A stretch of 64,000 nucleotides of DNA from an uncultured virus (IMG/VR IMGVR_UViG_3300027816_000062). Its lineage: Duplodnaviria > Heunggongvirae > Uroviricota > Caudoviricetes. Made by a program: the position numbers and the translations under genes. Within the stretch, counting starts at the first letter, position 1. The number at the start of each line of letters is the position of its first letter. The notes under the pieces are model-generated. The model worked only from the letters and a program-made list of their open reading frames with translations. It did no database searches and had not been told where the DNA came from. Location: IMG/VR virus record IMGVR_UViG_3300027816_000062; one strand, 5' to 3'. Shown piece by piece: positions 625 through 58,294 of the stretch.

Positions 625-647
625 ATAATGATCGGATATATAAGACA

Positions 648-992
648 ATGAATGATTCTGCTGATAATTTCTCCGAGCCGCAAGAATTCGGCACCAAGCC
701 GTTCATTTATTTTGAAGAGGGCGAGCCAGAAGACTACCCTCAAAGATATGGAGTAGTTCTTGTGCTTTCTGATTTTGCCCTGGCGGCAAAAGGGCTCGGC
801 CCTGAAGACAAAGATGAATTACTAATTCGAGGCGCAGTGAGTTATCGTGAATGTCTTAATATGGCCAGGGCTAAATGGAAACAAACCGTATTTTTTAAAG
901 GTAAGGAAGGGAAAATGTATTCGAAAATCTCCATTGAAGGCCCCGATGTGAGAACTACATGGAATAGACCCGAAACCCCGATCATTCCATAA
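648..992 (+). CDS. hypothetical protein
   Basis: ORF directly behind repeated promoter motif. Confidence 0.75.
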   Translation: MNDSADNFSEPQEFGTKPFIYFEEGEPEDYPQRYGVVLVLSDFALAAKGLGPEDKDELLIRGAVSYRECLNMARAKWKQTVFFKGKEGKMYSKISIEGPDVRTTWNRPETPIIP

Positions 993-1033
993 AAAATCCC
1001 CTCTTTTCAGAATTCTGATCGGATATAAAAGGC
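991..1033 (+). promoter_or_regulatory. representative copy of repeated putative phage promoter AAAAATCCCC-N16-ATCGGATATAAAA; many tens of copies across the window on both strands
   Basis: same bipartite motif before most ORFs and several RNA genes; start codon about 33 nt after the C-run. Confidence 0.8.
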
Positions 1034-1519
1034 ATGAATGATTTAATTCTCGTATATCTGGGCGAAGAAATTGTGAGCGTGGTTGAAGAAAATTCCGACA
1101 TGCACAAAAGATACATTCAAAGAAACAAAGAATCAGCTCAAAAACGCATTACTGATTGGCGAAAACGCTTTGATGATGCTCATATGATTTATCATAATTT
1201 TGCTCGGCATGGAAATAATCTGGCCGAATTCCTTGATAACGATTGTTCGCATTATTGTGATGCTTATATAACATATAAAGAAAAAGGCCTTGATGCTGCT
1301 CGGGATTCATTGCCGTTTCAATGTCTTTATGATGTGAATTTCCATAACACAGCATTACGTCTTTATTATAAACAAAATAAAATTAAAGATTTTTATAAAT
1401 TCTTATCAAAATTCACTGATGAAGAATTCTATCGTGTTACTTTTGGCGAACCTGAAAATGATGGTGAGTTTCAGTTCGTGAAAGCACCTTATAATGTTGA
1501 GCCACCGATCATTCCATAA
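1034..1519 (+). CDS. hypothetical protein, paralog of 1561..2043
   Basis: both start MNDLILV and share CLYD and IKDF motifs. Confidence 0.8.
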   Translation: MNDLILVYLGEEIVSVVEENSDMHKRYIQRNKESAQKRITDWRKRFDDAHMIYHNFARHGNNLAEFLDNDCSHYCDAYITYKEKGLDAARDSLPFQCLYDVNFHNTALRLYYKQNKIKDFYKFLSKFTDEEFYRVTFGEPENDGEFQFVKAPYNVEPPIIP

Positions 1520-1560
1520 AAAATCCCCTCTTTTCGTAAGACTGATCGTATATAAAAGAC

Positions 1561-2043
1561 ATGAATGATTTAATTCTCGTATCTCGCGGCAATAAGCCGC
1601 TGTGTGTAGTAGATGAAAGCTCTGATTTGTATCAAGAACTTGTCAGAGAAAACGAAGAGGCTATGCAAGGTGAAATTAATCACTGGTTAACGCCCTTTGA
1701 TGATGAATCTTTGATTTATTACAATTTTAACGAGTGGCCCGAAACAGAAAGCCTTACCGAATACATTGGAAACTTAACGCTTGGTTCACATGCGGCTTTC
1801 TACAAAGATATGCTTAAAGAAAAGGGTATTGAAGCAGTGAAGAAATCACTTAAATACCGATGTCTTTATGATTATCATCTTGCCACAGTCGGCTATGATA
1901 TTTTTCTTAAACAAGATGAAATCAAGGATTTCAAAAAGTTTGCAAAAACTTTAACTCCTAAAGATATTTTCATACAACTGTACGGAGACACTTCAAAATT
2001 GTTCAAGTTCACTGCAATCCCCTACAATACTTTTCCCGAGTAA
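1561..2043 (+). CDS. hypothetical protein, paralog of 1034..1519
   Basis: promoter motif; similarity to neighbour. Confidence 0.8.
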   Translation: MNDLILVSRGNKPLCVVDESSDLYQELVRENEEAMQGEINHWLTPFDDESLIYYNFNEWPETESLTEYIGNLTLGSHAAFYKDMLKEKGIEAVKKSLKYRCLYDYHLATVGYDIFLKQDEIKDFKKFAKTLTPKDIFIQLYGDTSKLFKFTAIPYNTFPE

Positions 2044-2050
2044 ATAAAAT

Positions 2051-2659
2051 ATGAGCACATTTTTTACTGCCGATTGGCACTTATCAGAAACACGATTGGA
2101 AATTATGTCGCGAGACATTTTTGACAGCCCCGAACACATGAATGAATCTTTGATTAATCTTCATAACATCAACTCAAAAGTTAAGAAGAATGACGAAGTA
2201 TATGTGATCGGAGATGTGATTTTTCGAGATGCTAATGTCGAAGAAACTCTTCCTTTGATCGAAAGATTTAACGGAAGAAAGATTCTTATTCGAGGAAATC
2301 ATGATCGTCACATAACAGATGAACAGTTTAGCCCATTTTTCGAGGAAATCATCCCCGAGGGAGAAGGCATTGAAATGATGATCGGAGATATTCCTTGTTA
2401 TTTAACACACTATCCAACTCGGGGGAAGAAATATAAGTATAATCTAGTTGGGCACATTCATGGTGCATGGAAACACCAACTGAATATGCTTAATGTTGGA
2501 GTCGATGTTCATCATTTTTGCCCCGTAAATGAAAAGTTTGTTTCAAAGTATTTCACAGCAATTACTGAATACTATGATGAAGATGTTTGGGTGGCATATA
2601 ATGAAATCAACTCGCGATATCGAAACAATCGAGGAAAGAAAGGTACATATTTCCCATGA
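2051..2659 (+). CDS. calcineurin-like metallophosphoesterase
   Basis: DWH, GD, GNHD, THYP and GHIH motifs. Confidence 0.9.
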   Translation: MSTFFTADWHLSETRLEIMSRDIFDSPEHMNESLINLHNINSKVKKNDEVYVIGDVIFRDANVEETLPLIERFNGRKILIRGNHDRHITDEQFSPFFEEIIPEGEGIEMMIGDIPCYLTHYPTRGKKYKYNLVGHIHGAWKHQLNMLNVGVDVHHFCPVNEKFVSKYFTAITEYYDEDVWVAYNEINSRYRNNRGKKGTYFP

Positions 2660-3006
2660 GATCAGAAGAATTTGATGAATATATGAGAGAAATTAGCAAC
2701 GAATTGCGCGTAACGCTAAAGCTGCCACCAAAGTATTTAAAAGGCTTTGAACCCGAACATTGGTCATTTACGCAATTAGAGCCGCTTAGTTTTGAAAAGC
2801 AACAAAAAATCAAGGAGCATTTCAGTAAAGAAATCCGAGACGCGCTTGACGACTATCTGAGTATTAAGGAAGAGTACCCCGATTGTGTGTGGGCTATTCT
2901 CAACTCAATTAAAAGGCAGGCCTCAAGATATGGAAACAAAACTCTCTGGAGAGAAATTTTCGCCCCTCACCTCGAAGAAGAAAAACTCAAAGAAATTTTC
3001 CCCTAA
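2656..3006 (+). CDS. hypothetical protein
   Basis: ATGA overlap with upstream gene. Confidence 0.7.
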   Translation: MRSEEFDEYMREISNELRVTLKLPPKYLKGFEPEHWSFTQLEPLSFEKQQKIKEHFSKEIRDALDDYLSIKEEYPDCVWAILNSIKRQASRYGNKTLWREIFAPHLEEEKLKEIFP

Positions 3007-3035
3007 ATTTCGAGTTATCCTTTGATATAAAAGGC

Positions 3036-3314
3036 ATGGACAAAGAAGCCATTAAACTAGCCATCTTGCCCCGTGGATCAAAACTAATCGAGGGTGAAGA
3101 AATTAAGTATTATCTTGTTCTCGGGATCGTGGCCACGAACAAGGACATCAACTGGGAAAAAGACTTTGTGACTATGGAAAGCGCAATCGGCTCGCCGATC
3201 ACAGATAAAATTGAGAAAATGACCAAGATGAAACTTGATGAAGATTGCGGAGACGCGAATTCTGTGTTAATGAAACTTCATAACACCAACAGAAACGAAC
3301 TTGAAGAACTCTAA
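3036..3314 (+). CDS. hypothetical protein
   Basis: promoter motif variant upstream. Confidence 0.7.
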   Translation: MDKEAIKLAILPRGSKLIEGEEIKYYLVLGIVATNKDINWEKDFVTMESAIGSPITDKIEKMTKMKLDEDCGDANSVLMKLHNTNRNELEEL

Positions 3315-3607
3315 TGGAACAAGACGTTTCTCAATATATTTTCATCTCACAAGAAAGCATTGACAAAGCTAAGAAACTTATGAAAAAAGCTCCAGAATCA
3401 TTAGAAGATTGGGCAGAAGAAAATTCGCGGAAAGAACGCCGATTAGAAACTCGACGCAGATACTATCGTGAAAACAAAATTCAAATCAATGTTCGACGTA
3501 AAGAACGAAAAGAAGAAATTCGAGCTGAACAGATTAGAACAGAAAAAGAACTATCGGACAAGCTTCAAATGACACTAAATTTTGATTCTGATCGTAGTAA
3601 TAATTAA
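3314..3607 (+). CDS. hypothetical charged/coiled-coil protein
   Basis: TAATG coupling to upstream gene. Confidence 0.65.
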   Translation: MEQDVSQYIFISQESIDKAKKLMKKAPESLEDWAEENSRKERRLETRRRYYRENKIQINVRRKERKEEIRAEQIRTEKELSDKLQMTLNFDSDRSNN

Positions 3608-3608
3608 G

Positions 3609-4841
3609 ATGAGAAGTTTTTTGTCTCAGGATTTATATAAAATTACGATGAGCCAAGCAGTTTGGCGACTGTTTCCTAATGCCTGGGTGAAATATCACTA
3701 TAAGCTTCGAACAAAAAACGTCAATCTTGCCCCGATTAAAGATCGAATTGATCGCAAAATTCATCAACTTCAAGGTATTGGGCCGACGGCGCTAGAAATC
3801 AACTTTCTTCGATCATTGGGATATTTTGATCCGTCATTTTTGGCATCATTGGCACATTTCAAACTGAACCCAGATGCGTATGTGAAAACAAGCGTGGATC
3901 AAGGGCATTTTGATCTCGTGATCGAAGGACCTTGGTATGATACGATCTTCTTCGAAGTTATGCTGTTGCAAATCATCTCGGAAACATATTTCGAAGATCA
4001 CGCCCGCGAACACCCAGAGGTTTTCGAGGAAGGCAGACAGCGATTGAATGAAAAAATCGAGCACTTGCTTCACATCTACGATCAGTATACAGATCATTAC
4101 GAAAGTCTAAGGGACCTTGAGGGCGGGGGAGAACTCAATCCTTTCTGCCTGATGGAATTCGGCACTCGTCGAGCTTTTTCAGAATCGTGGCAAGGAGAAG
4201 TTGTTGAAACACTTGCGCAAAAACTTCCGCGTGAAATGTTCCTCGGTACATCAAACGTGTATTGGGCACAACAACTTGGGCTTAAGCCACAAGGCACGAT
4301 GGCGCACGAATATATCTGTGCTCATGGAGCGCTTTATCCCTTGCATGAGGCGCAAAAGCAAGCTTTCTACAATTGGAACAAGGTGTTCCAAGGCAAGCTC
4401 GGAACCGCGCTTTCAGATACATTCACTTTTGATCAATTCCTAAGAGACTTTGATTCGGGCTTGGCCAACTTGTTTACAGGAGCTAGGCACGACTCTGGTG
4501 ATCCGTTCGAGTGGGGCCACAAACTCATTGAACACTATCGAACACTGGGAATCAACACTCATACCAAAGTGGCTGTGTGGAGCGATAATCTAGATATCGA
4601 GCTGGCAGAAAAGCTTTGGAAAACTTTTGCCCCGAAAATTAAAACATCATTCGGGATCGGGACCAATTTGACTAATGACATGGGGTTAAAGCCTTTGTCA
4701 CAAGTCATTAAGCTTACTCATGTGAACAACATGCCAGTGATTAAGATTAGTGATGAACCCGAGAAAGTGATGTGCGAAGATGAAACATACAAGGCCTGGG
4801 CTTTGCGACTATTTACAGAAATTTTACCAAATCAATCATGA
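3609..4841 (+). CDS. pncB: nicotinate phosphoribosyltransferase
   Basis: DLYKITM, EFGTRR, GTSNV, GTMAHE, RHDSGDP, FGIGTNLTND and KISDEP motifs. Confidence 0.92.
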   Translation: MRSFLSQDLYKITMSQAVWRLFPNAWVKYHYKLRTKNVNLAPIKDRIDRKIHQLQGIGPTALEINFLRSLGYFDPSFLASLAHFKLNPDAYVKTSVDQGHFDLVIEGPWYDTIFFEVMLLQIISETYFEDHAREHPEVFEEGRQRLNEKIEHLLHIYDQYTDHYESLRDLEGGGELNPFCLMEFGTRRAFSESWQGEVVETLAQKLPREMFLGTSNVYWAQQLGLKPQGTMAHEYICAHGALYPLHEAQKQAFYNWNKVFQGKLGTALSDTFTFDQFLRDFDSGLANLFTGARHDSGDPFEWGHKLIEHYRTLGINTHTKVAVWSDNLDIELAEKLWKTFAPKIKTSFGIGTNLTNDMGLKPLSQVIKLTHVNNMPVIKISDEPEKVMCEDETYKAWALRLFTEILPNQS

Positions 4842-5260
4842 TCGTAGAAACTCCTCAGTTAAACGAAAGCGAACTTAATAATGAACAGCTCACATATTGG
4901 GCATACTTTACGTATCTGCCCCATATCGGACACTATTACCAACAATTTGCCTCATCGCAGATGGTCAAACATAAAGTGATTTCAGGAGTGATGCTTTTTT
5001 CAAGCCCCGAAGAATGTGAACGAGTATGTTCGTGGTCAGGAGCAGCTATAGGATCGGGGGCAGTGGAAATTACATTTCAAGAAGCCAAAGATCATTCGAT
5101 CATGTCTCAAAAAGAGTATCCTCATATTACTCCAGTGATTTTCTTCTGTGACGGCATGATCGAGGCTTCATTTTTCGAAGAACACTCTATGGATGAAATT
5201 AAAAATCTTTCAGAATCAATTAAAGATAAAATGATCCCGAGTAAATTTGTATACGTGTAA
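4838..5260 (+). CDS. hypothetical protein
   Basis: ATGA overlap with pncB. Confidence 0.7.
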   Translation: MIVETPQLNESELNNEQLTYWAYFTYLPHIGHYYQQFASSQMVKHKVISGVMLFSSPEECERVCSWSGAAIGSGAVEITFQEAKDHSIMSQKEYPHITPVIFFCDGMIEASFFEEHSMDEIKNLSESIKDKMIPSKFVYV

Positions 5261-5327
5261 AAATCCCCTATTCTTGTGGCCCAATTTGAATGTATAAAGG
5301 GATGAATACATTTATGGGAGGCGTGTT

Positions 5328-5573
5328 TTGAACTACGCTTGGGAAGTGACCGTTGACGATGTTTTTTATGCTATCAATGCAAATGACATAAAAATCTCGT
5401 GGGAAAACGCAAACAAAATTCATGACATGCTTGATCATGATGAAGTCGTAGCTGCTGCGCTTTATGGCGAAGACATGGACGATCAGGCCGCATATGCAAG
5501 CGATGAAATTCGCAATCAAGTCTTTGACGAAAGTGGAAACTTGCGCACAGAGTTTGCCTTCGCAGGGGGATAA
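5328..5573 (+). CDS. hypothetical acidic protein
   Basis: GGAGG then TTG start; start uncertain. Confidence 0.6.
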   Translation: MNYAWEVTVDDVFYAINANDIKISWENANKIHDMLDHDEVVAAALYGEDMDDQAAYASDEIRNQVFDESGNLRTEFAFAGG

Positions 5574-5613
5574 AAATCCCCTGTTTTCTTTCTTCTGATC
5601 GGATATATAAATC

Positions 5614-6051
5614 ATGACGCCAAGCGAACAACAATACAAAGAAGCTTCTTACAGTGTCCTTTTCCAGAAAGGATGTGTGATCAAAGACGAACGAGACATC
5701 ATCAAGTATTATTCAAATACACTGAACGCAGATTATACGGAAACCAAACGAGCCTTAAAAGACCTCCAAGCCAATGGTATTAATATTGGGGAAAGCTCTT
5801 TGCCCTCTGATGGATATGGTTCTGTATTTAATGGAACTGACGCAAATAATATTGAAATTGAGTATATGAGCGCCACGATAGTGTCTAATTCAGGTGCTAA
5901 GTATTTTTGGGCCGTGCAAGTAGGATCATTGTCCAAGGTCATCAAACTCTTGACAAATCCAATGTCTTTAGAGGACGCCTTGTTTGTTTTGGCTCAGAGA
6001 CTTGAACGAGTCAATGACAGCCAAGAACTTGCTTACAACTCGGGACTGTAA
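5614..6051 (+). CDS. hypothetical protein, paralog of 6711..7235
   Basis: shared GCVI..DII..YS and TIVSN.G motifs. Confidence 0.8.
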   Translation: MTPSEQQYKEASYSVLFQKGCVIKDERDIIKYYSNTLNADYTETKRALKDLQANGINIGESSLPSDGYGSVFNGTDANNIEIEYMSATIVSNSGAKYFWAVQVGSLSKVIKLLTNPMSLEDALFVLAQRLERVNDSQELAYNSGL

Positions 6052-6092
6052 AAAATCCCCCATATTCATAATCCCAATCGGATATATAAAGC

Positions 6093-6668
6093 ATGGCTAA
6101 ATACACGTTCACAACTTATCGACGAAAGCAAGGCACATCTGAATTCACGGTAGTAAATCAAGAAACCCTTGATCGTTATTCTGATTATCGCAATTGTAGT
6201 GTGCTTGATGATTTTGTGATTGTTCACAATCATAAAACTGGCACATATCATAATTTTTGCCGAAAAGACTTCTATGGCGATGTTGATGGGCAAATTATTT
6301 TCGGATGCAATCTATTTGGAGTTCCTGTTGTTGAACACAAAGATGATATGCAAATTCATTCTGTGACTTTCGCACAGGTAGCGACGTCGTGGCGCAATCG
6401 AGACGTCTGTGTTCATTTTGACCGCAGCATTCATCCGCAAGATTTTCAAGATGTCCATGCCCTCATCGCCGCTATTGAAAATGCGCTTAAGAACATTCAT
6501 GGACAAAGCCAAGCTGCCAACCATGGAAGAATGTTGGCATGCGGAGGAGAAAATGCATATAGAGCCTATAACATGGGGGAAGTTTATTTTGCAATTTACC
6601 TTATACATCAGCGAACTGGCGCAAGAGTTGTCACACTTAATAATCGCGTGGGGATTTTTTACTACTAA
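6093..6668 (+). CDS. hypothetical protein
   Basis: promoter motif; weak similarity to 7639..8202. Confidence 0.75.
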   Translation: MAKYTFTTYRRKQGTSEFTVVNQETLDRYSDYRNCSVLDDFVIVHNHKTGTYHNFCRKDFYGDVDGQIIFGCNLFGVPVVEHKDDMQIHSVTFAQVATSWRNRDVCVHFDRSIHPQDFQDVHALIAAIENALKNIHGQSQAANHGRMLACGGENAYRAYNMGEVYFAIYLIHQRTGARVVTLNNRVGIFYY

Positions 6669-6710
6669 AAAATCCCCGATTTTCACCACTCCAATCGGAT
6701 ATATAATCAC

Positions 6711-7235
6711 ATGAACTTTGCTCACGAACTTAAAGCCAAGGTGTGTTGCATCCTTTTACAATCGGGATGTGTAATTCGTAACCCAGATGACATCATACAA
6801 ACATATAGCCAACGAATTGACGCTGATTTTCGAGCCACGGAAATGGCTTATGAAGATTTCAAACAAAATGGAATTGACCTAGAGGCATCGTCAACGATTG
6901 AAGATGGAACCGAGGGCGCATTTGATGGCTCATTTAATGAGCCTCTTCAAGTCCCTTATATTAAGTGCACGATTGTTTCCAACACGGGCATATCTTATCC
7001 TTTCGCGGCTCAAACAGGAGGAAAACTTGATAACTCACTATCGGCTATTATGAAACTTCTTTGTTCTAATCATGATATTAATGAGTCTCTTGAAGAACTC
7101 AAGACGCGATTAGAAGATGTTAAGAAGCAAACTCAGAAAATCGAGCGTGATGGACCCTACAAAGCCATGTTTGAAAGAGACTATGAGCTTATGCTCGATA
7201 GTCACTTGGCCTATGAGAGTTATTGCTATCTCTAA
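6711..7235 (+). CDS. hypothetical protein, paralog of 5614..6051
   Basis: promoter motif; paralogy. Confidence 0.8.
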   Translation: MNFAHELKAKVCCILLQSGCVIRNPDDIIQTYSQRIDADFRATEMAYEDFKQNGIDLEASSTIEDGTEGAFDGSFNEPLQVPYIKCTIVSNTGISYPFAAQTGGKLDNSLSAIMKLLCSNHDINESLEELKTRLEDVKKQTQKIERDGPYKAMFERDYELMLDSHLAYESYCYL

Positions 7236-7247
7236 AACAAAACAGAC

Positions 7248-7655
7248 ATGATTAAAAAACTAACAAAAGCACTCGAAAATAAAGCACAATTAAACTTTTC
7301 CGATGAAACCTTGGCACATATGCAACTAGGTCTCGCGATGATGCAAGCCGCGCAAATTTACCGTGACGCGATTAAAGCACTTCTTTCAGATCATGACGAA
7401 GAGGTTTTCGATGAAAGAATCAAAAGTGCCATGAATGAACACAACATCTGTGCATTAACGACTTTGATTGACTATATGTATGATGGTGGAGAAAACTATC
7501 TTGATGTGAATCTCAGTCACCTTACAGATGAAGAAGTTGAAAAAATGCCACTATCAGAAACAAACATGTATCACTTCCTGTTTATCCCCGTGAAGAAAAA
7601 TCCCCTAAATTTTTCACTAACAATGAATATAAAAGCCAATGATGAACCCCAATAA
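7248..7655 (+). CDS. hypothetical protein
   Basis: ORF in dense gene array. Confidence 0.7.
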   Translation: MIKKLTKALENKAQLNFSDETLAHMQLGLAMMQAAQIYRDAIKALLSDHDEEVFDERIKSAMNEHNICALTTLIDYMYDGGENYLDVNLSHLTDEEVEKMPLSETNMYHFLFIPVKKNPLNFSLTMNIKANDEPQ

Positions 7656-8202
7656 TCTCGCACTTTATAAAGCATCCACAGAGTATTTTAAGCAAGACCC
7701 TAAAACACTCCAGTTTTACTCTGTGGATTTTGAAGATGACGACACATTGCGCACATTACAAGGCATCGGATCAGTTGTTGTCCGCACGCACCCGCGCACT
7801 GAACTGATTTCTTTCTATGCTGATTTTCGCAACAAAGAATTGCAATATGCGCTCGGAGTTAAAATGCTCGGGGTTAATTTTGCCACGATCAGAGAACTAA
7901 CTCCCAATTGCAGCTTTTTTGATGATGAATGTACGTTCTATTTTCATGCCGAAAATCCAGATCAATTAGGAGATGTATATTTCCAAGAATACAGACGATA
8001 TCACAATCTTAGAGACAATTTAGCACAAACATCAAAGCTCAGTCGAAAGAAAATCGCTAAAGAGCTTGAACATTTTGATTCTTATGAAGAATATCGAGCT
8101 TTTCGAGCTGGGGCAATTTTCTTCGTGATCTTTAACATCTGCCGAAAGTATAATATGACTTTTGTGCAAATCCCTTCATGCAGACTGGATCGAGCTTTTT
8201 AA
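7639..8202 (+). CDS. hypothetical protein
   Basis: promoter motif embedded in end of upstream ORF. Confidence 0.75.
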   Translation: MMNPNNLALYKASTEYFKQDPKTLQFYSVDFEDDDTLRTLQGIGSVVVRTHPRTELISFYADFRNKELQYALGVKMLGVNFATIRELTPNCSFFDDECTFYFHAENPDQLGDVYFQEYRRYHNLRDNLAQTSKLSRKKIAKELEHFDSYEEYRAFRAGAIFFVIFNICRKYNMTFVQIPSCRLDRAF

Positions 8203-25404: not shown

Positions 25405-25472
25405 AACTTTTCAAAGGTGATCGCCGTATAACAAAAGAACATACACAAAGCAAAAGCTTTAAGGACACAATT

Positions 25473-25541
25473 ATGACTCGCCGATATCTTTCACTGCTAG
25501 GACTCTTATCGCTTTCTCTTGAGAAAGCGGCGATTAGCTGA
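25473..25541 (+). CDS. putative Leu-sensing attenuator leader peptide MTRRYLSLLGLLSLSLEKAAIS
   Basis: AAGGA SD; 7 Leu in 11 consecutive codons using CTT/CTG/CTA/CTC/TTA; followed by alternative hairpins and tRNA-Leu genes. Confidence 0.8.
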   Translation: MTRRYLSLLGLLSLSLEKAAIS

Positions 25542-25602
25542 TAGATTTTGCGATCAGTGTTTAATCCCCGATTTCTCTCAAGGAGTCGGGGATTTTTGTT
25601 TT
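25509..25602 (+). promoter_or_regulatory. transcription attenuator (pause hairpin, antiterminator, terminator)
   Basis: CGCTTTCT/AGAAAGCG; 25521-25537 pairs with 25561-25577; terminator AATCCCCGATTTC/GAGTCGGGGATT plus T-run. Confidence 0.8.
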
Positions 25603-25614
25603 TGCGTTTCACAT

Positions 25615-25699
25615 ACCGCTCTGGAGTAGCCAAACTTGCTACAGGCAACAGTCTTAGAAACTGTCTCTTTTCTGGGTTGGAATCCCAGGGGCGGTACCA
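25615..25699 (+). tRNA. atypical tRNA-Leu(UAG)-like gene
   Basis: ACCGCTC/GGGCGGT acceptor, ACAGT-CTTAGAA-ACTGT arm, CTGGG/CCCAG T-arm, ACCA end; abnormal D and variable regions. Confidence 0.65.
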
Positions 25700-25750
25700 A
25701 TATTGACAATAGAATAGAGGAAAGAGAAAATAGATTTTCGAGTGATAAAT

Positions 25751-25837
25751 GCGGACGTGGCGGAATTGGTTTACGCGCTACTTTGAGATGGTAGTCCCCG
25801 ATTGGGGGTGTGGGTTCGAGTCCCACCGTCCGCACCA
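25751..25837 (+). tRNA. tRNA-Leu(GAG)
   Basis: cloverleaf with long variable arm, TTCGAGT, CCA. Confidence 0.93.
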
Positions 25838-28070: not shown

Positions 28071-28092
28071 AATTGAAAAATGAGAATCTAAT

Positions 28093-28393
28093 CGGGGCGT
28101 GGCGAAATGGCAGACGCAGGGGACTTATAAAATGAGCACTTGTTTGTGAAAGCTGCAAGTGAATGCAATCAAATTCGGTGAAACCTTAACAGTTAGGCTG
28201 ATGGCAATACCGAGCCAAGCTAACTCAAAACAGAGTTAGAAGGTGTAGAGACTAGATGGTTGCTGCCTAAGTCGAAAGATATGGCAAAGGTATAGTCCAG
28301 ACCACAAAATCCTTTGGGATCGTAGTGAAAGCTATAGTGGTATGAAAATCCCTTAGTAGCAATACTGTGTGGGTTCGAGTCCCACCGCCCCGA
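28093..28393 (+). tRNA. tRNA-Leu(UAA) interrupted by group I intron
   Basis: exons 28093-28126 and 28345-28393 splice to GGGGA-CTTAAAA-TCCCT; CGGGGCG/CGCCCCG acceptor. Confidence 0.9.
28127..28344 (+). mobile_element. group I intron (IC3-like) in tRNA-Leu(UAA) anticodon
   Basis: CTT/GAG P1, AAATTCGGTGAAAC (P), AATACCGAGCC (Q), GTAGAGACTAGATGG (R), AGGTATAGTCC (S), terminal G. Confidence 0.88.
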
Positions 28394-28443
28394 TTAGGTT
28401 ATATATTGATTACTAATGCGCTTTGTGTGCTTTTAGTATAAGA

Positions 28444-30053: not shown

Positions 30054-30476
30054 ATGACAATTGACGGAAAGTTGCTTAAAAGACTAATGTGTAGCAACGA
30101 GGCTTTTGATATTTTGGGTGACATCGTAAGTTGGAATTCTGGAGGTTGCTGGATTCTTGCCGAAGCTCTGCGCCGATTCATTGGCGATCAGGCTACTATC
30201 GTGGCCATCGCTGATGATCGCTGCCAACACCAACATATTGTCGTGAAAGTGGGGAATTTGTATTATGACGCCGACGGAGAGTCGAACGAAGGGCGTCTGC
30301 TGCATCGCTGGATGGATTATGAACGACTCCGTAATCCTCGAATCGTAGGTTTTGATCCAGAACTGGCCGCTGATTTAGAAATTCCTTGCGAAGAAGAACT
30401 TGTAACGCAAGTCTATAACTTGCTGAACTCGCGTCTGAAAAATCCCCTTTTTTCACAATCGGGAGCGCATATATAA
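30054..30476 (+). CDS. hypothetical protein, possible Cys-His-Asp (papain/transglutaminase-like) fold
   Basis: GGC..LA.AL, QH.VV, YYDADG. Confidence 0.55.
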   Translation: MTIDGKLLKRLMCSNEAFDILGDIVSWNSGGCWILAEALRRFIGDQATIVAIADDRCQHQHIVVKVGNLYYDADGESNEGRLLHRWMDYERLRNPRIVGFDPELAADLEIPCEEELVTQVYNLLNSRLKNPLFSQSGAHI

Positions 30477-30479
30477 ATC

Positions 30480-30686
30480 ATGGACCCATTTCTTTTTTAT
30501 TCTACCTATTTTATCTTGGGACTTGGTTTTATGTTCGCATTGATGGCAATCGGAGCGCATCACTATACCAATGGCCCATCTCGTGAACAAGAACAAAAAC
30601 AAAGAATCAAGTTTATTATTCTATCAGTGCTTTTAATAGCTAGTGCAATTTTTCTGGGCCGTTATGCTGCGGGTCTGCTTTTTTGA
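30480..30686 (+). CDS. small membrane protein
   Basis: two TM segments; promoter motif. Confidence 0.7.
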   Translation: MDPFLFYSTYFILGLGFMFALMAIGAHHYTNGPSREQEQKQRIKFIILSVLLIASAIFLGRYAAGLLF

Positions 30687-30752
30687 TTTCATTCTCTTGA
30701 AATGGTTTTAAAAAATCCCCTTTTTTCAGAAAACCAAATCAATATAAAAAAT

Positions 30753-31073
30753 ATGCGAATTCGACCGCAATCCGACCCGAACAAGGAATATCTCATCGAC
30801 TTTTACTACCCGTATGGGAAGCAAGGACACAAGAAGAAGGGCACCAAGACTGTCTGCACTATCTCTGTCGGCCCTGTGGGTAGTCTCGACAAGGACAAGA
30901 CCGAAGTCTCGACCACTACCGTTCGCCGACATAGTACCGATCAGGACAATCTTGTCGTAGCTCGTAATTATGCACTGGCCAAGGCCCTATCCCCGATTGA
31001 AGCTAGTGTCCGACAAGAGATTTGGGAACAGGCTCCGATTCGACGAGCAGACATTTCCCTGGAACTCGACTAA
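30753..31073 (+). CDS. hypothetical phage protein
   Basis: promoter motif; T.CTI..H..D....AR..AL.KAL. Confidence 0.7.
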   Translation: MRIRPQSDPNKEYLIDFYYPYGKQGHKKKGTKTVCTISVGPVGSLDKDKTEVSTTTVRRHSTDQDNLVVARNYALAKALSPIEASVRQEIWEQAPIRRADISLELD

Positions 31074-31200
31074 ACTCCAAAAACATTCTCATTGAGGGAG
31101 AATTTAATCCCTCAATGAGAAAAAACAAAAAACTGCTAACAAAAAGCAGGTGATCGTCGTATAATAAGAGAAGAAACTGAAAAGCACAAAGAGCTATATT

Positions 31201-31323
31201 ATGAATCATCTCTTATCGACGACAATATGTGGAACAACAGGAACCTCAACAAGAGGAATCCTTTCCCTTGGCGTTATCGGCAAGGATAGTGATTCTGATT
31301 CAGGAGAACCCATCGAATCGTAG
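31201..31323 (+). CDS. putative Gly/Thr/Ser-sensing attenuator leader peptide (40 aa)
   Basis: MNHLLSTTICGTTGTSTRGILSLGVIGKDSDSDSGEPIES; codon run GGA ACA ACA GGA ACC TCA ACA AGA GGA; followed by alternative hairpins and tRNA-Gly(UCC), Ser(UGA), Thr(UGU). Confidence 0.75.
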   Translation: MNHLLSTTICGTTGTSTRGILSLGVIGKDSDSDSGEPIES

Positions 31324-31343
31324 CTTTACTGTGATTACAGAAC

Positions 31344-31384
31344 AAAGAGGCTCGATTCGATAAGATCGAGCCTCTTTTCTTTTT
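31344..31384 (+). terminator. attenuator terminator with overlapping antiterminator
   Basis: AAAGAGGCTCGAT/ATCGAGCCTCTTT plus T-run; 31312-31327 can instead pair with 31347-31361. Confidence 0.85.
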
Positions 31385-31513
31385 AGATATGATGTCTGGG
31401 AAGAGAAAGATCGAATATTGAAAATTTCATACAGGTATAGATATAAAAGTGTTAGGGGGTGTTGGATCGATCTTTGATCGCAGGCCTCACCCCCTTGATC
31501 GAGACACATTTTC

Positions 31514-31587
31514 GCGAGATTGGTATATGGGTTGTGCCCTAGCCTTCCAAGCTAGAGAAAAGGGTTCGAATCCCTTATCTCGCTCCA
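31514..31587 (+). tRNA. tRNA-Gly(UCC)
   Basis: cloverleaf, CTAGC-CTTCCAA-GCTAG, TCCA end. Confidence 0.92.
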
Positions 31588-31638
31588 ATTTAAGACACAT
31601 TTCTTTGTGCTGCCAATGGGCAGCTTTCAAAAGAAAAC

Positions 31639-31725
31639 GGATGGGTGACAGAGCGATCTATTGTAGCGGTCTTGAAAACCGCCGTGCCAAAAGCACCGTG
31701 GGTTTGAATCCCACCCCATCCTCCA
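31639..31725 (+). tRNA. tRNA-Ser(UGA)
   Basis: cloverleaf, GCGGT-CTTGAAA-ACCGC, variable arm, CCA. Confidence 0.9.
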
Positions 31726-31823
31726 TTTTGTAACAAAATCATAAAATTCAAAGCAGGTGTAGCTCAGTGGTAGAGCGCCCGCCGCGAAGGTTGATGGTTG
31801 CAATATCGATAAATAGATTATGT

Positions 31824-32240
31824 ATGGCAATAACAAAATACAAAGGAGCCGTCGGGCTAACTAATGTAATGGCCTGTCTTGTCAATCAAAAAGCAAAAAT
31901 CTTTGTTCCAATAGACGAAGACTGTCAATATGACCTGGTGGTAGATTATCAAAATTATCTTTACAGAGTGCAAGTTAAATATGCTGAGGCAAAAAATGGC
32001 AAGATCGTTGTAAAGACGCGCTCAACGAATAACTATTGTGAAATTCGTTATACTAAAGATCATTTTGACGTGATTGCTGTTTGGGACAATGTTGGCAAAA
32101 AAGCATATTTTATTTCATCGAATTTAATCACAGAAGGAATGACGGAAATGACCTTGAGATTAGATGCACCAAAAAACAATCAAACTAAAAACATAAGATT
32201 GGCTCGTAATTATGAGCAATTTAATGCTGCGGTCGCATAG
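31824..32240 (+). CDS. PD-(D/E)XK homing-type endonuclease (group I intron-associated family)
   Basis: KG..G, P.DE...YDLVVD.....RVQVKY, Y....FD. Confidence 0.85.
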   Translation: MAITKYKGAVGLTNVMACLVNQKAKIFVPIDEDCQYDLVVDYQNYLYRVQVKYAEAKNGKIVVKTRSTNNYCEIRYTKDHFDVIAVWDNVGKKAYFISSNLITEGMTEMTLRLDAPKNNQTKNIRLARNYEQFNAAVA

Positions 32241-32308
32241 TGGTCGATTGCACCTCTCTTGTAAAGAGGAACTCCACACCGTGGGTTCGAATCCCACCCG
32301 TAGCTCCA
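32226..32308 (+). tRNA. tRNA-Thr(UGU)
   Basis: GCTGCGG/CCGTAGC, CCTCT-CTTGTAA-AGAGG, TCCA; 11-nt variable region. Confidence 0.88.
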
Positions 32309-32422
32309 TTTTTCGCACATATGTGTCAGGGGTTCGAATCCCCTCTCCTGCTTTGAGTTGAGTGATGATATCCGATCATAAAAAATCCCCCTTTTTCTCA
32401 ATAGTGATCGGATATATAAAGT

Positions 32423-33022
32423 ATTGCTGTGAGCTAAATCAATTGACACAGCATGATGAAACCAAAATCATCTAAAAACAATAAGGTGCTCCATATACGT
32501 CTGGGAAAGATAAATTAGACGTGGACACACTGTGATGTGGACTAATCACAGCGCACTGGGGCATGTGTGCAAGCCCGAAAAGCCTATCTTTACTGATATA
32601 GTTAAAGAGAAAGAGCAGAGAGTTAAGGCTTAAAATAAACTCCATGCGTTCGTAAGGATGAACTCAAAGACGAGTTCAGTTATGACTAGGATACGAGAGG
32701 AGGGAGGCAATGAGTTTCTCTCCTCTCCCCGACAAAGCGATTTCCGACTGCTCATCGGAGAAGTGATCTAGTAAAACACTCAGAAAAACACTAGCGTAGG
32801 AAATGCGTTAATCCCTGATTTTTTATCGGTTTTTAGAGACAAAAAACTGTTCGTATAGGGCTTGCGGTAAGCCTCTTGTTTTAGCTAGGTGATCCTGTAT
32901 GTAAAAACCAAGCGGATGGAACAAATCAATTTGTTTTCGCGAGCAAATGATCCATTGACTTTGGGGAACAGCGTAAGAACGTTTCGCCATGAGGCTTTGA
33001 GCAAAGTCTCGTTCCCCAAAAA
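32423..33022 (+). ncRNA. large highly structured ncRNA (~600 nt), possibly ROOL/GOLLD-like
   Basis: no credible ORF, begins at promoter motif, more than 10 helices, abuts tRNA-Asp. Confidence 0.7.
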
Positions 33023-33034
33023 TAAAAAGATTCT

Positions 33035-33111
33035 GGGTATGTAGTTCAGTTGGTTAGAGCACCTGCCTGTCACGCAGGAAGTCGCGAGTTCAAGTCTCGT
33101 CATATCCGCCA
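33035..33111 (+). tRNA. tRNA-Asp(GUC)
   Basis: cloverleaf, CCTGC-CTGTCAC-GCAGG, GCCA. Confidence 0.94.
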
Positions 33112-33131
33112 AAATTTCCAAAGGAGACAAA

Positions 33132-33347
33132 ATGAATAGACAAATAGAAAGCCTCGATCATCTGGTGTCTCTTGGGCTACTGACATCATATGAGTTTGTA
33201 AACGTGTCAGCCAATAACATTGAGGGCGAGATTTCAGAACATCATAATTCTGATCGATTGAAACTCATATTCCCGAATGGGTTGGAAGTGAAGATCACTG
33301 CGATCACAACAGGCATGGAAGAAGATGCTCTTTTGAGATTGGAATAA
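33132..33347 (+). CDS. hypothetical protein
   Basis: AAGGAG SD. Confidence 0.7.
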   Translation: MNRQIESLDHLVSLGLLTSYEFVNVSANNIEGEISEHHNSDRLKLIFPNGLEVKITAITTGMEEDALLRLE

Positions 33348-34742: not shown

Positions 34743-34828
34743 GGAACGTAATCCCGACAGGTGCTGGGCGATGTTTGCTAAACAATCGGCTTTGTAAAAG
34801 AAGTGGGGTTCGAGTCCTCTGCGTTCCT
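34743..34828 (+). tRNA. non-canonical 8/4-fold tRNA-Ser(GCU)
   Basis: 8-bp acceptor GGAACGTA/TGCGTTCC, TGT-TTGCTAA-ACA, variable arm, GGGG-TTCGAGT-CCTC; no encoded CCA. Confidence 0.72.
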
Positions 34829-39648: not shown

Positions 39649-39858
39649 ATGAACGATTCAAATCGCTTTGAAGTAATCAGCTCAGGTCCATACAATTTGA
39701 AGATTGTTGCGCAAACTATGACTGAGTGCATGGATATGATTCGACGAAACTCTGACATGGTGGACTTCTGGGCAGTTTTAGACCATTCTACGAAAACCGT
39801 GGTCGCTTTAAGCCAGGACTGGAAAGTCTTGCCAACATTCAAACCCGCAGTAAACTAA
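39649..39858 (+). CDS. hypothetical protein
   Basis: promoter motif; TAATG-coupled to PARP gene. Confidence 0.65.
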   Translation: MNDSNRFEVISSGPYNLKIVAQTMTECMDMIRRNSDMVDFWAVLDHSTKTVVALSQDWKVLPTFKPAVN

Positions 39859-41138
39859 TGAAAGAATCTCGATATATTTTCGCTGACGTGAGCGCGAATA
39901 ATAACAAGTTTTGGAACATCAAAATTGAACCAAACTTCACGGTCGTAACTTCGTGGGGCCGAGTCGGAGATAACGCACAATCAAAGGAATTTCCCCACGG
40001 AAGCCTTGCAGACGCAGAAAAGTTCTTCGATAGGAAATGCCGCGAAAAGGAACGAAAAGGATACGTTAAGCAAAGAGTTCTGATCGGAGAATACACCACG
40101 CAAGATAACACTTCGCTTGCGTCAGTTGCCAAACAACAAATCAACACAAATAGCCCCGAATTAGATGAACTAATTGCCTTCCTGACTAAAGCAAACGTTC
40201 ATAACATTCTAACAGCAACAGCTATGGAATACGACACTTCAAAGGGAGTTTTTACAACGCCCCTCGGAGTTGTCACGAACGATGCCATTCAAGATGCACG
40301 AAGCATCTTGGCATCAATGGGCCTTCTTGTGCATAATCAAGATTGGAACTCCCCCGATTGGAATTCGCTCTTGTCTATGTACCTTACTGCCATCCCTCAA
40401 AAGATTGGACGCAGAAAGCCAGACCCAAGAGAACTCTTCCCGAGCCTTCAAGCTATTCAAAATCAAAGCAAAATTCTTGACGACCTGGAAGCATCATTCC
40501 AATCTGTCGTGAGCGCACCACTGACGCAGAAAGGGGATGACACAAACACGCCACAAGTGTTTGATGTGAAATTGCATCTTGTAGACGATCAAAGCATAAT
40601 TCGACGAATCAAAAACAAATACGACTCCACACGAAAGACCATGCACGCATCATATCATCTGGGGGTGAAACGAGTCTTTTCTGTCGAAATTAACGCGATG
40701 GCAAAGGCATATGGTGATCGGGGAAAGAACGTCGGCAACGTGATGGAACTCTGGCATGGGACACGAGCGGGGAACCTTTTGAGCATCCTTAAAGGCGGAC
40801 TGCAAGTCCCACCCGCATCGAGCCCTCATGTGACGGGGAGAATGTTCGGGGATGGATTGTATTTTTCAGATCAGTCCACGAAAAGCCTCAATTATGCCTA
40901 TGGAGCAGCACCAGGACAAAGAGGAGGAATTGAATCGTCCACGTTCATGTTTCTCGCAGATGTAGCAATGGGACGCCCATTTGTCCCAACGTCCTATACA
41001 CGACCGTCAAAGTACCCCGTGCAAGGACATGATTCAATATTTGCAAAAGCAGGACAATCAGGCGTACACAATAATGAAATGATCGTATACACCACCGATC
41101 AATGCAACCTCACCTACCTGGTTGAATTCGGAAACTAA
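39858..41138 (+). CDS. WGR-domain PARP-like ADP-ribosyltransferase
   Basis: NNKFW..WGRVG..KERKGY (WGR); LWHGT, GRMFGDGLYFSD.STKS.NY, NNEMIVY (H-Y-E triad). Confidence 0.92.
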   Translation: MKESRYIFADVSANNNKFWNIKIEPNFTVVTSWGRVGDNAQSKEFPHGSLADAEKFFDRKCREKERKGYVKQRVLIGEYTTQDNTSLASVAKQQINTNSPELDELIAFLTKANVHNILTATAMEYDTSKGVFTTPLGVVTNDAIQDARSILASMGLLVHNQDWNSPDWNSLLSMYLTAIPQKIGRRKPDPRELFPSLQAIQNQSKILDDLEASFQSVVSAPLTQKGDDTNTPQVFDVKLHLVDDQSIIRRIKNKYDSTRKTMHASYHLGVKRVFSVEINAMAKAYGDRGKNVGNVMELWHGTRAGNLLSILKGGLQVPPASSPHVTGRMFGDGLYFSDQSTKSLNYAYGAAPGQRGGIESSTFMFLADVAMGRPFVPTSYTRPSKYPVQGHDSIFAKAGQSGVHNNEMIVYTTDQCNLTYLVEFGN

Positions 41139-44684: not shown

Positions 44685-44760
44685 GGGTCAGTAGCTCAGC
44701 AGGTAGAGCAGCGGTCTTTTAAACCGCGGGTCGTGGGTTCGAGTCCCACCTGGCCCACCA
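44685..44760 (+). tRNA. tRNA-Lys(UUU)
   Basis: cloverleaf, GCGGT-CTTTTAA-ACCGC, ACCA; directly behind promoter motif. Confidence 0.94.
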
Positions 44761-46715: not shown

Positions 46716-47612
46716 ATGAGTAGAGTAAAGAGAGTTATTGATAATGGTCTGGTATCGAAAAACTCAGTGCCAAAGCACTTCCCCGATTCGATTCAATACG
46801 AGACGATCATGGGAAGTGTGGCCTACGGAGTGTCTTCTGATACGTCGGATATGGATATTTATGGATTTTGTATCCCGCCCAAGCACATTGTCTTTCCTCA
46901 CTTAGCGGGACATATCCCTGGCTTTGGTCAACAGCCTGAGAAATTCGAGCAATGGTCGGTGCATCATATCAAAGATGAAGAAAAAAATACCGAGTACGAT
47001 TTTTGCATTTACAATATCGTCAAGTATTTTAGTTTGGTTATGGAAAACAATCCCAACATGGTGGATTCTCTTTTCACTCCACAAAACGCGATTTTGCACT
47101 GCTCTCCAATCGCTCAAATGGTGCGTGACGAACGTCATATCTTCTTGCATAAGGGAGCGTGGCACAAGTTCAAGGGCTATGCCTACTCGCAGATGCACAA
47201 AATTCGATCAAAGGAGGCTCCGCAAGGCAAGCGAAAAGAGCTGGTGGAACAGTTTGGATTCGACGTGAAGTTTGCTTATCATGTTGTAAGATTGATTGAC
47301 GAAGTTGAGCAAATTCTTGTTGAGGGCACTCTTGATCTTCAAAGAAATCGAGAACAGCTTAAATCTATTCGGAGAGGTGAATGGACTTTAGAGGAAATCG
47401 AGGAATACTTTACTCGTCGAGAAAAAGAACTTGAGCTGGCTTATGCTAACTCAAAGCTGCCTCACACGCCCGATGAAAAGCGAATCCGCCAGCTTTTGAT
47501 GAATTGCCTTGAGCATCATTACGGAAACCTATCAGACGCCGTAGTGGATGTTGACGCGGCCACGAGAACACTTCAGCAAGTTGCGCATCTAATTCGACAA
47601 GGGGGATTCTAA
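46716..47612 (+). CDS. pol-beta superfamily nucleotidyltransferase
   Basis: GSVAYG....SDMDIYG, NNPN, FKGYA, K.AYH..RL, L.SIRRG. Confidence 0.88.
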   Translation: MSRVKRVIDNGLVSKNSVPKHFPDSIQYETIMGSVAYGVSSDTSDMDIYGFCIPPKHIVFPHLAGHIPGFGQQPEKFEQWSVHHIKDEEKNTEYDFCIYNIVKYFSLVMENNPNMVDSLFTPQNAILHCSPIAQMVRDERHIFLHKGAWHKFKGYAYSQMHKIRSKEAPQGKRKELVEQFGFDVKFAYHVVRLIDEVEQILVEGTLDLQRNREQLKSIRRGEWTLEEIEEYFTRREKELELAYANSKLPHTPDEKRIRQLLMNCLEHHYGNLSDAVVDVDAATRTLQQVAHLIRQGGF

Positions 47613-57418: not shown

Positions 57419-58294
57419 TTAGGCCGTCGCCAGTTCTTTCTTTGCTTCCAGGCTCTTGGCCTTGCCTCGGCCCATAATGAAGTTTGCGGCTTTCCCCGCA
57501 AGTCCTGCGGCCTGCACGACCATTTTGGGGTCGTCATTCAGAACCTTGAGCCAGCCCTGAATATAGGCCTGGGTGTTCTCGGTGTCATTGTCGATGCCGA
57601 TTTCTTGGCAGAGAAAGGCGGCTGTGAGTTCTGCTACCAGTTCCTCGCGGCTGTAACCTTCCTTGTCAAGCGTTGAGATTTGCATGACTTCGGGTCGAGC
57701 CAATCGGGATTCGTGGCCCGTCGCGTGACCAAGTTCATGGAATAAGGTCGCGTAATAGGCTTCGGAACTGACAAAAGATTCGATAATAGGCATTTGGACC
57801 CAATCGCCATAAGGCGAATAACAGGCACGATTTCCACCGTGACGAATCTCAGGCACCAGCGGCATTTCTTGGACCACTTCCTCACAACGTTCGATGCGGC
57901 GATTGTCTTTCAGTTCCTCAATCGGCGGCAGGTCGAGCCCTTCGGTTTGCTCCACATTGAAAACATAAAATTGCTTCAATACGGGGTAGGAACCTGTCTT
58001 GCCAGTCTTATCATCCTCATAACTCACCTGCTTCCAGAACACAATCGGTGTGCCCTTCTCGCCCTTCTTGATTCGCCCGCCCATCTTGTTGATTTGATTG
58101 CAAGTCATCCAGCGCGGGTCGGCAAAGGTAGACATTGACAAAAGCAGAAGGTTGAGCCCGCTATACTTGGTTCCGCTACTGGGGTTGCAGGGTCGAATCA
58201 CCGACCAGGGTCGCTTCCAAGCAACGTTTCCGCTCTTTAGGCCCTCGATGATGGTGTTGGTTACGATTTCGTAGACTTCGGACTTCTTCTTCAT
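57419..58294 (-). CDS. ardC: ArdC-like antirestriction ssDNA-binding/zincin protein
   Basis: W..PW, YSGLNLLLL, KGEKG, VFNVEQ, HELGHATGH..RL.R, Y..EELVAEL, YI.GWL..L. Confidence 0.92.
   Translation of the reverse strand: MKKKSEVYEIVTNTIIEGLKSGNVAWKRPWSVIRPCNPSSGTKYSGLNLLLLSMSTFADPRWMTCNQINKMGGRIKKGEKGTPIVFWKQVSYEDDKTGKTGSYPVLKQFYVFNVEQTEGLDLPPIEELKDNRRIERCEEVVQEMPLVPEIRHGGNRACYSPYGDWVQMPIIESFVSSEAYYATLFHELGHATGHESRLARPEVMQISTLDKEGYSREELVAELTAAFLCQEIGIDNDTENTQAYIQGWLKVLNDDPKMVVQAAGLAGKAANFIMGRGKAKSLEAKKELATA

Follow-up and report, generated by a model that had tools for sequence, protein, structure and literature searches.

Paralogous candidate leader-peptide attenuators upstream of tRNA genes in a jumbo bacteriophage

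Two paralogous units in a 64,000-nucleotide (nt) stretch of DNA from an uncultured virus of the Caudoviricetes (IMG/VR record IMGVR_UViG_3300027816_000062), which in its whole length we call the window, each place a short open reading frame (ORF) and a strong intrinsic terminator with a competing antiterminator in front of tRNA genes that read codons enriched in that ORF. Unit B precedes the genes for tRNA-Gly(UCC), tRNA-Ser(UGA), and tRNA-Thr(UGU), and unit A, which spans 25416-25837 with its tRNA genes, precedes a tRNA-Leu(UAG)-like element and tRNA-Leu(GAG) (Table 1). We propose, as a call that we hold to be evenly balanced, that both units are ribosome-mediated (leader-peptide) transcription attenuators that feed back on tRNA supply. 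The window is part of a 379-kb jumbo bacteriophage, because it is near-identical to a 378,848-bp virus record (G001; 100% identity over window positions 30700-32700) whose gene content includes terminase, portal, DNA polymerase, a CCA-adding enzyme, and RtcB. The tRNA complement of G001 comprises 33 tRNA calls and a tmRNA, with 35 tRNA/tmRNA genes in total.

The leader ORF of unit B stands out by its codons, with GGA and ACA four times each, ACG once, and TCA and TCG twice each. A reading made from the letters alone (hereafter the sequence-only reading) had drawn attention to a nine-codon run in this ORF and to exactly matching anticodons downstream; the run is present as described, and ARAGORN and Rfam recovered the three tRNA genes at the same positions. 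Across the six frames of the window, the only nine-codon stretch with at least seven of GGA, ACA, and TCA is this run, and none arose in 100 Markov simulations. The three codons make up 10 of the 40 in the ORF, a share that ranks 7th among the 3,887 ORFs of 25 to 80 codons in G001; with their G-ending partners added the share is 13 of 40 and the rank 5th. When 6,033 ATG-initiated ORFs are ranked by binomial p, ORF B comes 3rd for the three codons and 2nd with the partners. The enrichment is specific to the reading frame (13 such codons in the ORF frame vs 2 and 2 in the other frames), and the codons in question are not rare in the phage, with GGA at 0.32 of Gly, ACA at 0.26 of Thr, and TCA at 0.20 of Ser codons. 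Both leader ORFs start in an A-rich context with a weak Shine-Dalgarno sequence, which is usual here, GGAG being found at 17% of 180 late gene starts. Other leader codons had been paired with more distant tRNA genes, of which Asp(gtc), Thr(ggt), cat, and Arg(tct) were found, Ser(gct) appeared at 34743-34828 only at a lowered ARAGORN threshold, and Ser(gga) was not found; the distant matches (Asp, Arg, Thr(GGU), CAU) add nothing, because with 35 tRNA/tmRNA genes almost any codon finds a partner.

The end of ORF B is complementary to the terminator that follows it. The 9-nt pairing noticed earlier is exact, ATCGAATCG (31312-31320) being the reverse complement of CGATTCGAT (31353-31361), but it is only part of a 15-bp antiterminator, AUCGAAUCG-U-AGCUUU (31312-31327) with GAGGCUCGAUUCGAU (31347-31361), which has an energy of -17.3 to -19.9 kcal/mol and is mutually exclusive with the terminator. 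The alternative partner that had been named, TGATTCTGAT, is likewise present at 31290-31299; it belongs to segment 1, the 3' half of which lies in GAT TCA with a GGA (31303-31305) directly after. Dinucleotide shuffles of the upstream 100 nt equalled this antiterminator in 0.5% of 1,000 cases, and it ranks first in a comparison of 37 terminator-like hairpins from G001 (-17.1 vs -11.7 for the next, with a median of -7.7). In nascent RNA that extends to 31364, the predicted probability of the antiterminator is 0.98 when no ribosome is present or one sits on the codon run, and 0.00 when one sits at the stop codon. Unit B RNA is highly structured overall (fold z-score, -5.2), and the region has the top densities genome-wide, at 31295-31520 and 31135-31415, of GATCGA (5 in 220 nt), TCGA (7), and GATTC/GAATC (6 in 220 nt), which raises self-complementarity above what the shuffles model. 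We also observed six GATC sites in ~140 nt of the unit B region, which could be protein-binding or methylation sites.

Unit A repeats this arrangement with other codons. Positions 25416 and 31149 are the only sites of the 24-nt P1 box GGTGATCGYCGTATAAYAARAGAA in the window, and G001 likewise has it just twice; 100 shuffles produced 0 matches. The two units are identical at 40 of 55 positions from the box to the ATG and at 55 of 84 upstream through the ATG, and at 64 of 135 after it, which is near random; their ATGs fall in one alignment column, and a comparison of peptides A and B revealed no similarity. ORF A contains four CTY codons, which the downstream tRNA-Leu(GAG) reads and which place it 26th to 37th among the 6,033 ATG-initiated ORFs, and its Leu enrichment is specific to the ORF frame. 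Its CTA and CTG (two codons) match a tRNA-like element with the loop CUUAGAA, and the remaining TTA may be compared with tRNA-Leu(UAA) at 28092-28394. The tRNA-like element scores 25.0 bits against the Rfam tRNA model, under the threshold of 29, and is called by ARAGORN only at a lowered threshold. It begins ~8 nt past the U-tract of terminator A and ends upstream of promoter P2-A, so only read-through could transcribe it.

The folding of unit A would also follow the ribosome. Its antiterminator, equalled by 3.5% of shuffles, appears in the minimum free energy (MFE) structure only with the Leu-codon region masked and is absent both when the RNA is free of ribosomes and when one occupies the stop codon. 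That stop codon lies within the antiterminator strand in unit B and 3 nt past it in unit A (25539-25541), at a distance from the terminator of 20 nt in unit B and 21 nt in unit A. Taken singly, the units have empirical p values of ~0.0004 to 0.002 (B) and 0.004 to 0.02 (A). We also scanned 100 tRNA clusters, 91 of them testable, in 53 phage sequences (G001, two others designated G002 and G003, and 50 loci). An upstream terminator-like hairpin of at least 7 bp was present at 14 clusters, which gave 32 test rows, and p was <0.05 for units A and B only, both in this phage.

RNA that starts at P1 and partly crosses terminator B is present in metatranscriptomes. Contigs of leader B RNA came from all four runs, each of a different study (31182-31435, 31199-31368, 31185-31458, and 31187-31343), and had 0 differences from the window. 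Three of them start within 31182-31187 without a loose end, just past the -10 TATAAT (31160-31165), a weak hint that a 5' end lies there, and two of the four cross terminator B with more than 31 nt on either side. P1-B also has a -35-like hexamer, CTAACA, at 31136-31141. Within 30400-33300, no RNA contig covers 30400-31175 or the tRNAs, and the endonuclease gene behind unit B is uncovered for the most part; we draw no inference from this. Contig joints at 31686/32277, 31686/32327, and 31777/32280 were rejected as splicing; other letters stand between the two sides, and these are tRNAs of other organisms that match the conserved arms only. Upstream of P1-B, a 14-bp hairpin (31086-31121) comes directly after the upstream ORF. 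Because an A-run follows it on the + strand, it resembles a terminator only when read on the - strand, which has no gene nearby; the A-run is at the same time an UP-like tract preceding P1-B.

The sequence-only reading had called unit B a Gly/Thr/Ser attenuator. Its architecture stands: it is present, statistically unusual, and repeated in unit A, with RNA that starts upstream of the ORF and two contigs that bridge the terminator. The interpretation is thus supported in part, and we set out how the units would function as a proposal. P1, a sigma-70-like promoter, would start a short transcript with a small ORF that stops 20 to 21 nt before a strong intrinsic terminator, and the final codons of the ORF would form the 5' strand of an antiterminator that pairs with the 5' arm of the terminator. 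A ribosome that ran smoothly to the stop codon would cover this strand, the terminator would fold, and transcription would end. A ribosome that lagged on the codons of scarce tRNAs would allow the antiterminator to form first, and the polymerase would read into the tRNA genes. The sensed codons would be GGA, ACA, and TCA in unit B and CUN and UUA in unit A, and the gated tRNAs would be those that decode them, Gly(UCC), Ser(UGA), and Thr(UGU) for unit B and the Leu(UAG)-like element and Leu(GAG) for unit A. The outcome would be negative feedback on tRNA supply, added to a basal promoter, P2, nearer the tRNAs. From the sequence we infer that the ORFs would be translated, that ribosomes would stall on them, that the hairpins would compete kinetically, and that tRNA levels would respond. 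Taken one step further, and tentatively, since we hold it somewhat short of probable, the two diverged copies may constitute a tRNA-supply homeostat, each reading through ribosome speed the supply of the very isoacceptors that it gates. Scarcity could come early in infection, in a host whose codon usage differs, or once a host defence has cut or depleted tRNAs.

A range of findings weighs against the attenuator reading. Unit B departs from the textbook layout in that 55 nt separate its main codon run from the antiterminator strand downstream, and it has only a weak 1:2 pairing (Table 1) and no clear 1:2 hairpin. At equilibrium, full-length unit B RNA is predicted to fold the terminator in every ribosome state (probability, ~0.95); the terminator wins once its 3' arm is present, and any switch in unit B would therefore be kinetic. 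ORF A is modestly Leu-rich, 68th to 118th of 6,033 when ranked by Leu. The RNA contigs yield neither levels nor true ends, and none extends to tRNA-Gly. A sigma-70-like site, P2, stands between each terminator and its tRNAs, with flanks conserved across the units. An independent promoter had been suspected near 31433-31450, and such a site is indeed there and conserved in unit A. P2-B overlaps a phage -10-like GATATAAAAG at 31440-31449, where the upstream box is absent; P2-A and P2-B are the only + strand places in G001 with the block AATATTGAMAAT, and tRNA-Ser(CGA), at another place in the genome, is preceded at 57 nt by a similar site, TTGAAA-17-TAATAT. With a conserved P2 in this position the tRNAs need not depend on read-through, and to judge by these motifs they probably have a promoter of their own.

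A third unit and the comparative searches also count against it. A third unit in G001 (unit C, 312680-312947) consists of a 43-codon ORF, MKAMQVNNMEIIAAGAFNATAVVFAIPASPWYFEPGRKTETLT, and a strong terminator 70 nt before a 12-tRNA cluster (Trp, Ser, Ile, Phe, two Glu, Ala, two Pro, two Val, and Tyr), and its terminator stem, GGCTCG...CGAGCC, resembles that of unit B. As an attenuator, unit C (ORF and terminator, 312680-312876) was rejected, its antiterminator being matched by 31% of shuffles, and its codon match is weak (rank 258 by the strict and 32 by the loose count of 3,887). Leader peptide B has no homologue in the protein collection searched. In viral contigs, neither a relative of the neighbouring proteins nor a match to the P1 box turned up, and 50 viral loci with the same 25-nt tRNA-Gly arm share nothing upstream. 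Portal relatives were found at 47 loci (48 to 75% identity), and the records of five such family-level relatives gave no match to the leader (best E, 0.086). G002 has 5 tRNA genes and G003 has none. The three metagenome copies are all identical over 1,825 nt, with no diverged copy among them. There is, finally, a selection effect, since just such a coincidence was what singled this finding out in a very large scan.

These points lend weight to other accounts of the same elements. P1 might make an independent short and stable RNA, the mRNA of a micro-protein or a non-coding regulatory RNA, that ends at the terminator, with the tRNAs transcribed from P2 and the codon matches and hairpins arising as by-products of local repeats (GATTC/GAATC, GATCGA) or A/R-rich motifs. 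We consider this unlikely, although much agrees with it: the promoter-like P2 conserved in both units, together with the similar site before tRNA-Ser(CGA); the strength of the terminators, -21.1 and -20.6 kcal/mol; leader RNA recovered as contigs of its own in all four runs, two of the four stopping at or before the terminator; the highly structured RNA; and the dense GATCGA and GATTC/GAATC repeats, which raise chance complementarity. The run GGAACAACAGGAAC / AACAAGAGGAAU can moreover be read by eye as two (ARN)4 tracts beside a U-tailed terminator, the signature of Hfq-binding small RNAs (class II type), which would presuppose a host that has Hfq. Independent transcripts do not account for paralogues whose unrelated ORFs each fit their own downstream tRNAs in amino acid and anticodon, with no cross-match and with the fit confined to the ORF frame, nor for a stop codon in or beside the antiterminator strand at the same spacing, nor for a tRNA-like element between terminator A and P2-A. 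Paralogous protein genes, furthermore, should keep their coding part at least as well as their 5' untranslated region, and the opposite is seen.

A mere coincidence after duplication, in which a promoter-terminator module was copied and drifted and the codon matches were noticed among many windows, is in our judgment improbable. The p values of the single units are such as a scan of ~250,000 windows could yield, but two paralogues jointly have their own matching tRNAs, antiterminators with p values of 0.005 and 0.035, and the same distance from stop codon to terminator. Still more doubtful, indeed very improbable, is a terminator whose hairpins are real and are switched by an RNA-binding protein, a small RNA, or direct tRNA binding in the manner of a T-box rather than by a ribosome. 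The statistical support for the antiterminator/terminator pairs would serve this account too; the three-hairpin layout of unit A is like the PyrR attenuator model, at 27.3 bits and below the threshold of 54, and a protein could bind at the local GATCGA and GGA repeats. Neither the T-box nor any other cis-regulatory family reached its threshold, however, and the conserved, aligned ATG and the frame-specific codons point to translation.

Leader-peptide transcription attenuators are known for amino-acid operons (trp, his, leu, thr, pheA, and ilv) and for synthetase genes (pheST and hisS); to our knowledge, the known cases control enzymes and synthetases, not tRNA genes. The units described here resemble them in the short codon-rich ORF, the 2:3 and 3:4 hairpins, the intrinsic terminator, and a stop-codon ribosome that would mask segment 2, and unit A, with a clear 1:2 hairpin where unit B has a weak pairing, comes close to the textbook layout. 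They differ in that they would gate tRNA genes, in a phage, with a second promoter behind the attenuator, and in that unit B combines three amino acids, each through a single specific codon, and would thus read isoacceptor supply and not one amino acid. No sequence similarity of the units to known leader-peptide attenuators was found. The peptide of unit B, LSTTICGTTGTSTRG, is Thr-rich with Ile and Gly, as in Rfam Thr_leader (RF00506), and recalls the flavour of the Escherichia coli thrL peptide. It is not a member of that family, the sole match being on the opposite strand over the terminator at 22.7 bits vs a threshold of 55, and Rfam leader families gave no match to unit A at E up to 10; neither unit reached the gathering threshold of Thr_leader, Leu_leader, or a related family. 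T-box riboswitches likewise sense tRNA status through a choice between terminator and antiterminator, but the units here carry a conserved ORF, and the Rfam scans gave no T-box match, a specifier loop or T-box sequence not having been otherwise searched for. The tRNA cluster of unit B is interrupted by a homing-endonuclease gene, as are other phage tRNA clusters, of which the T4 tRNA region with SegB is an example; we know of no attenuator in such clusters. His leader peptides upstream of hisS paralogues are on record (PMC2965389, where the term 'tRNA gene' is found 0 times), and the titles and abstracts returned by full-text literature searches named no leader-peptide attenuator of tRNA genes.

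If they form a homeostat, these units would be the first attenuators whose output is the sensed tRNA itself. If the attenuator reading is true, phages would regulate tRNA genes by direct feedback on decoding. This would bear on why large phages carry tRNAs, whether to match codon usage or to replace tRNAs lost to host defences. Such a unit would be a compact, isoacceptor-specific sensor, reusable as a reporter of tRNA availability, and two paralogues with different specificities would amount to a natural experiment in retuning such sensors.

Table 1. Positions of the elements of units A and B and of neighbouring features in the window
Feature	Position	Strand	Details
P1-A box GGTGATCGCCGTATAACAAAAGAA	25416-25439	+	Paralogous to P1-B
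Leader ORF A	25473-25541	+	22 codons, MTRRYLSLLGLLSLSLEKAAIS, 7 Leu (CTT x3, CTC, CTG, CTA, TTA)
1:2 hairpin, unit A	25509-25530	+	9 bp; segment 1 25509-25517 (TCG CTT TCT), segment 2 25522-25530; MFE
Antiterminator 5' strand, unit A	25520-25536	+	Pairs with 25563-25578; 13 bp; -14.4 kcal/mol
Intrinsic terminator A	25563-25607	+	Stem-loop 25563-25597 and U-tract; -20.6 kcal/mol
tRNA-like element	25615-25699	+	7-bp acceptor stem, anticodon loop CUUAGAA (UAG, Leu), ACCA end; irregular
P2-A, TTGACA-17-GAAAAT	25703-25731	+	Sigma-70-like; read from sequence, aligned with P2-B
tRNA-Leu(GAG)	25751-25837	+	ARAGORN; Rfam tRNA
Early promoter sites (examples)	30711, 29345, 36077	+	Motif AAAAATCCCCYTTTTY
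P1-B box GGTGATCGTCGTATAATAAGAGAA	31149-31172	+	-10 TATAAT 31160-31165; promoter scan 10/12
Leader ORF B	31201-31323	+	40 codons, ATG to TAG, peptide MNHLLSTTICGTTGTSTRGILSLGVIGKDSDSDSGEPIES
Codon run GGA ACA ACA GGA ACC TCA ACA AGA GGA	31231-31257	+	Within leader ORF B
Segment 1 GUGAUUCUGAUUC, unit B	31288-31301	+	Alternative partner of segment 2; nascent-RNA MFE; duplex -5.8 kcal/mol
Antiterminator 5' strand (segment 2), unit B	31312-31327	+	Contains stop TAG 31321-31323
Intrinsic terminator B	31344-31387	+	14-bp stem 31344-31377, then U-tract; -21.1 kcal/mol
Antiterminator 3' strand (segment 3), unit B	31347-31361	+	Also most of terminator 5' arm and loop
P2-B, TTGAAA-18-TATAAA	31418-31447	+	Sigma-70-like; read from sequence
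Hairpin GGGGGUG...CACCCCC	31453-31495	+	Spacer before tRNA-Gly
tRNA-Gly(UCC)	31514-31587	+	ARAGORN; Rfam tRNA 55.2 bits
tRNA-Ser(UGA)	31639-31725	+	ARAGORN; Rfam tRNA 48.7 bits
5' tRNA fragment	31753-31783	+	Acceptor, D arm, start of anticodon stem; read from sequence
PD-(D/E)XK homing-endonuclease-like ORF	31824-32240	+	Pfam PDDEXK_5, E 4.3e-23
tRNA-Thr(UGU)	32226-32308	+	ARAGORN; Rfam tRNA 57.3 bits; 83 nt, long variable region
3' tRNA fragment	32326-32353	+	T arm and acceptor 3' strand, matches 5' fragment; read from sequence

The genes behind unit B have features of their own. The T arm of tRNA-Thr(UGU) is nearly identical to that of the neighbouring tRNA-Ser. A further tRNA gene is apparently split across 31753-32353, its two fragments having complementary acceptor strands and lacking the anticodon loop and the 3' strand of the anticodon stem; between them lie the PDDEXK_5 ORF and tRNA-Thr(UGU). 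A single intron-containing tRNA that would span the endonuclease gene was considered and rejected, as ARAGORN with introns called none. Farther downstream, at 32381-33034, a canonical phage promoter (motif at 32381) is followed by ~600 nt without an ORF of more than 51 codons, up to tRNA-Asp. RNA contigs from three runs cover this region (32340-32983 at depth 53, 32556-32908 at depth 142, and 32437-32690 with 32754-32993) and are the deepest of those that lie wholly on the stretch; it matches no Rfam family, has a fold z-score of -3.1, and may be an abundant non-coding RNA of no known family.

The tRNA region belongs to an early-gene block with a strong promoter motif of its own, AAAAATCCCCYTTTTY, which has 38 matches in the window vs 0.02 expected and is followed by a GATCGGATATATAAA element. 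Among the 35 listed + strand cases, the distance between the start of the motif and the start codon is exactly 42 nt in 19 and 41 to 45 nt in 27, and this fixed distance implies mRNAs with little or no leader. Within G001 the motif is restricted to the first 60 kb, and in other viral contigs it never occurs more than once each, with single chance matches in 41 contigs. Most early-block tRNAs lie at the end of an early-promoter transcription unit or directly at a promoter; tRNA-Lys(UUU) at 44685 starts at the usual position of the ATG relative to the early promoter. At one end of the window (1-7694), sampled 40-nt words (positions 1, 5001, 7001, and 7695) are missing from G001, and the assembly of the window therefore probably differs from G001 there.

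Two further candidates were set aside. Amber read-through of the leader B TAG was rejected, since counting TAG as sense raises coding density from 0.852 to 0.879, a smaller gain than for TGA or TAA; TAG terminates 35 of 394 long ORFs in G001, and coding density bears no sign of genome-wide TAG recoding. A host guess from the tRNA-Gly arm, which matches nine genome contigs, five of them labelled as cyanobacterial metagenome-assembled genomes that may be binned phage DNA, was too weak and was not used.

The phage also carries auxiliary genes and further tRNA loci. The window encodes a nicotinate phosphoribosyltransferase, a PARP-like protein (WGR, regulatory, and catalytic domains), an RlaP RNA-repair nucleotidyltransferase, and an ArdC-like protein with a zincin peptidase (window ORFs 3582-4841, 39858-41138, 46716-47612, and 57419-58294), and these auxiliary genes together with RtcB and the CCA-adding enzyme amount to a large tRNA maintenance kit. 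G001 carries at 294065-295477 a tmRNA (tag AENNFAFAA), two tRNAs with the anticodon CUA, and two tRNA-Lys genes. The tRNA-Leu(UAA) gene at 28092-28394 of the window is interrupted by a 218-nt group I intron, called by ARAGORN with introns and matched by Rfam Intron_gpI at 58.2 bits (28116-28319).

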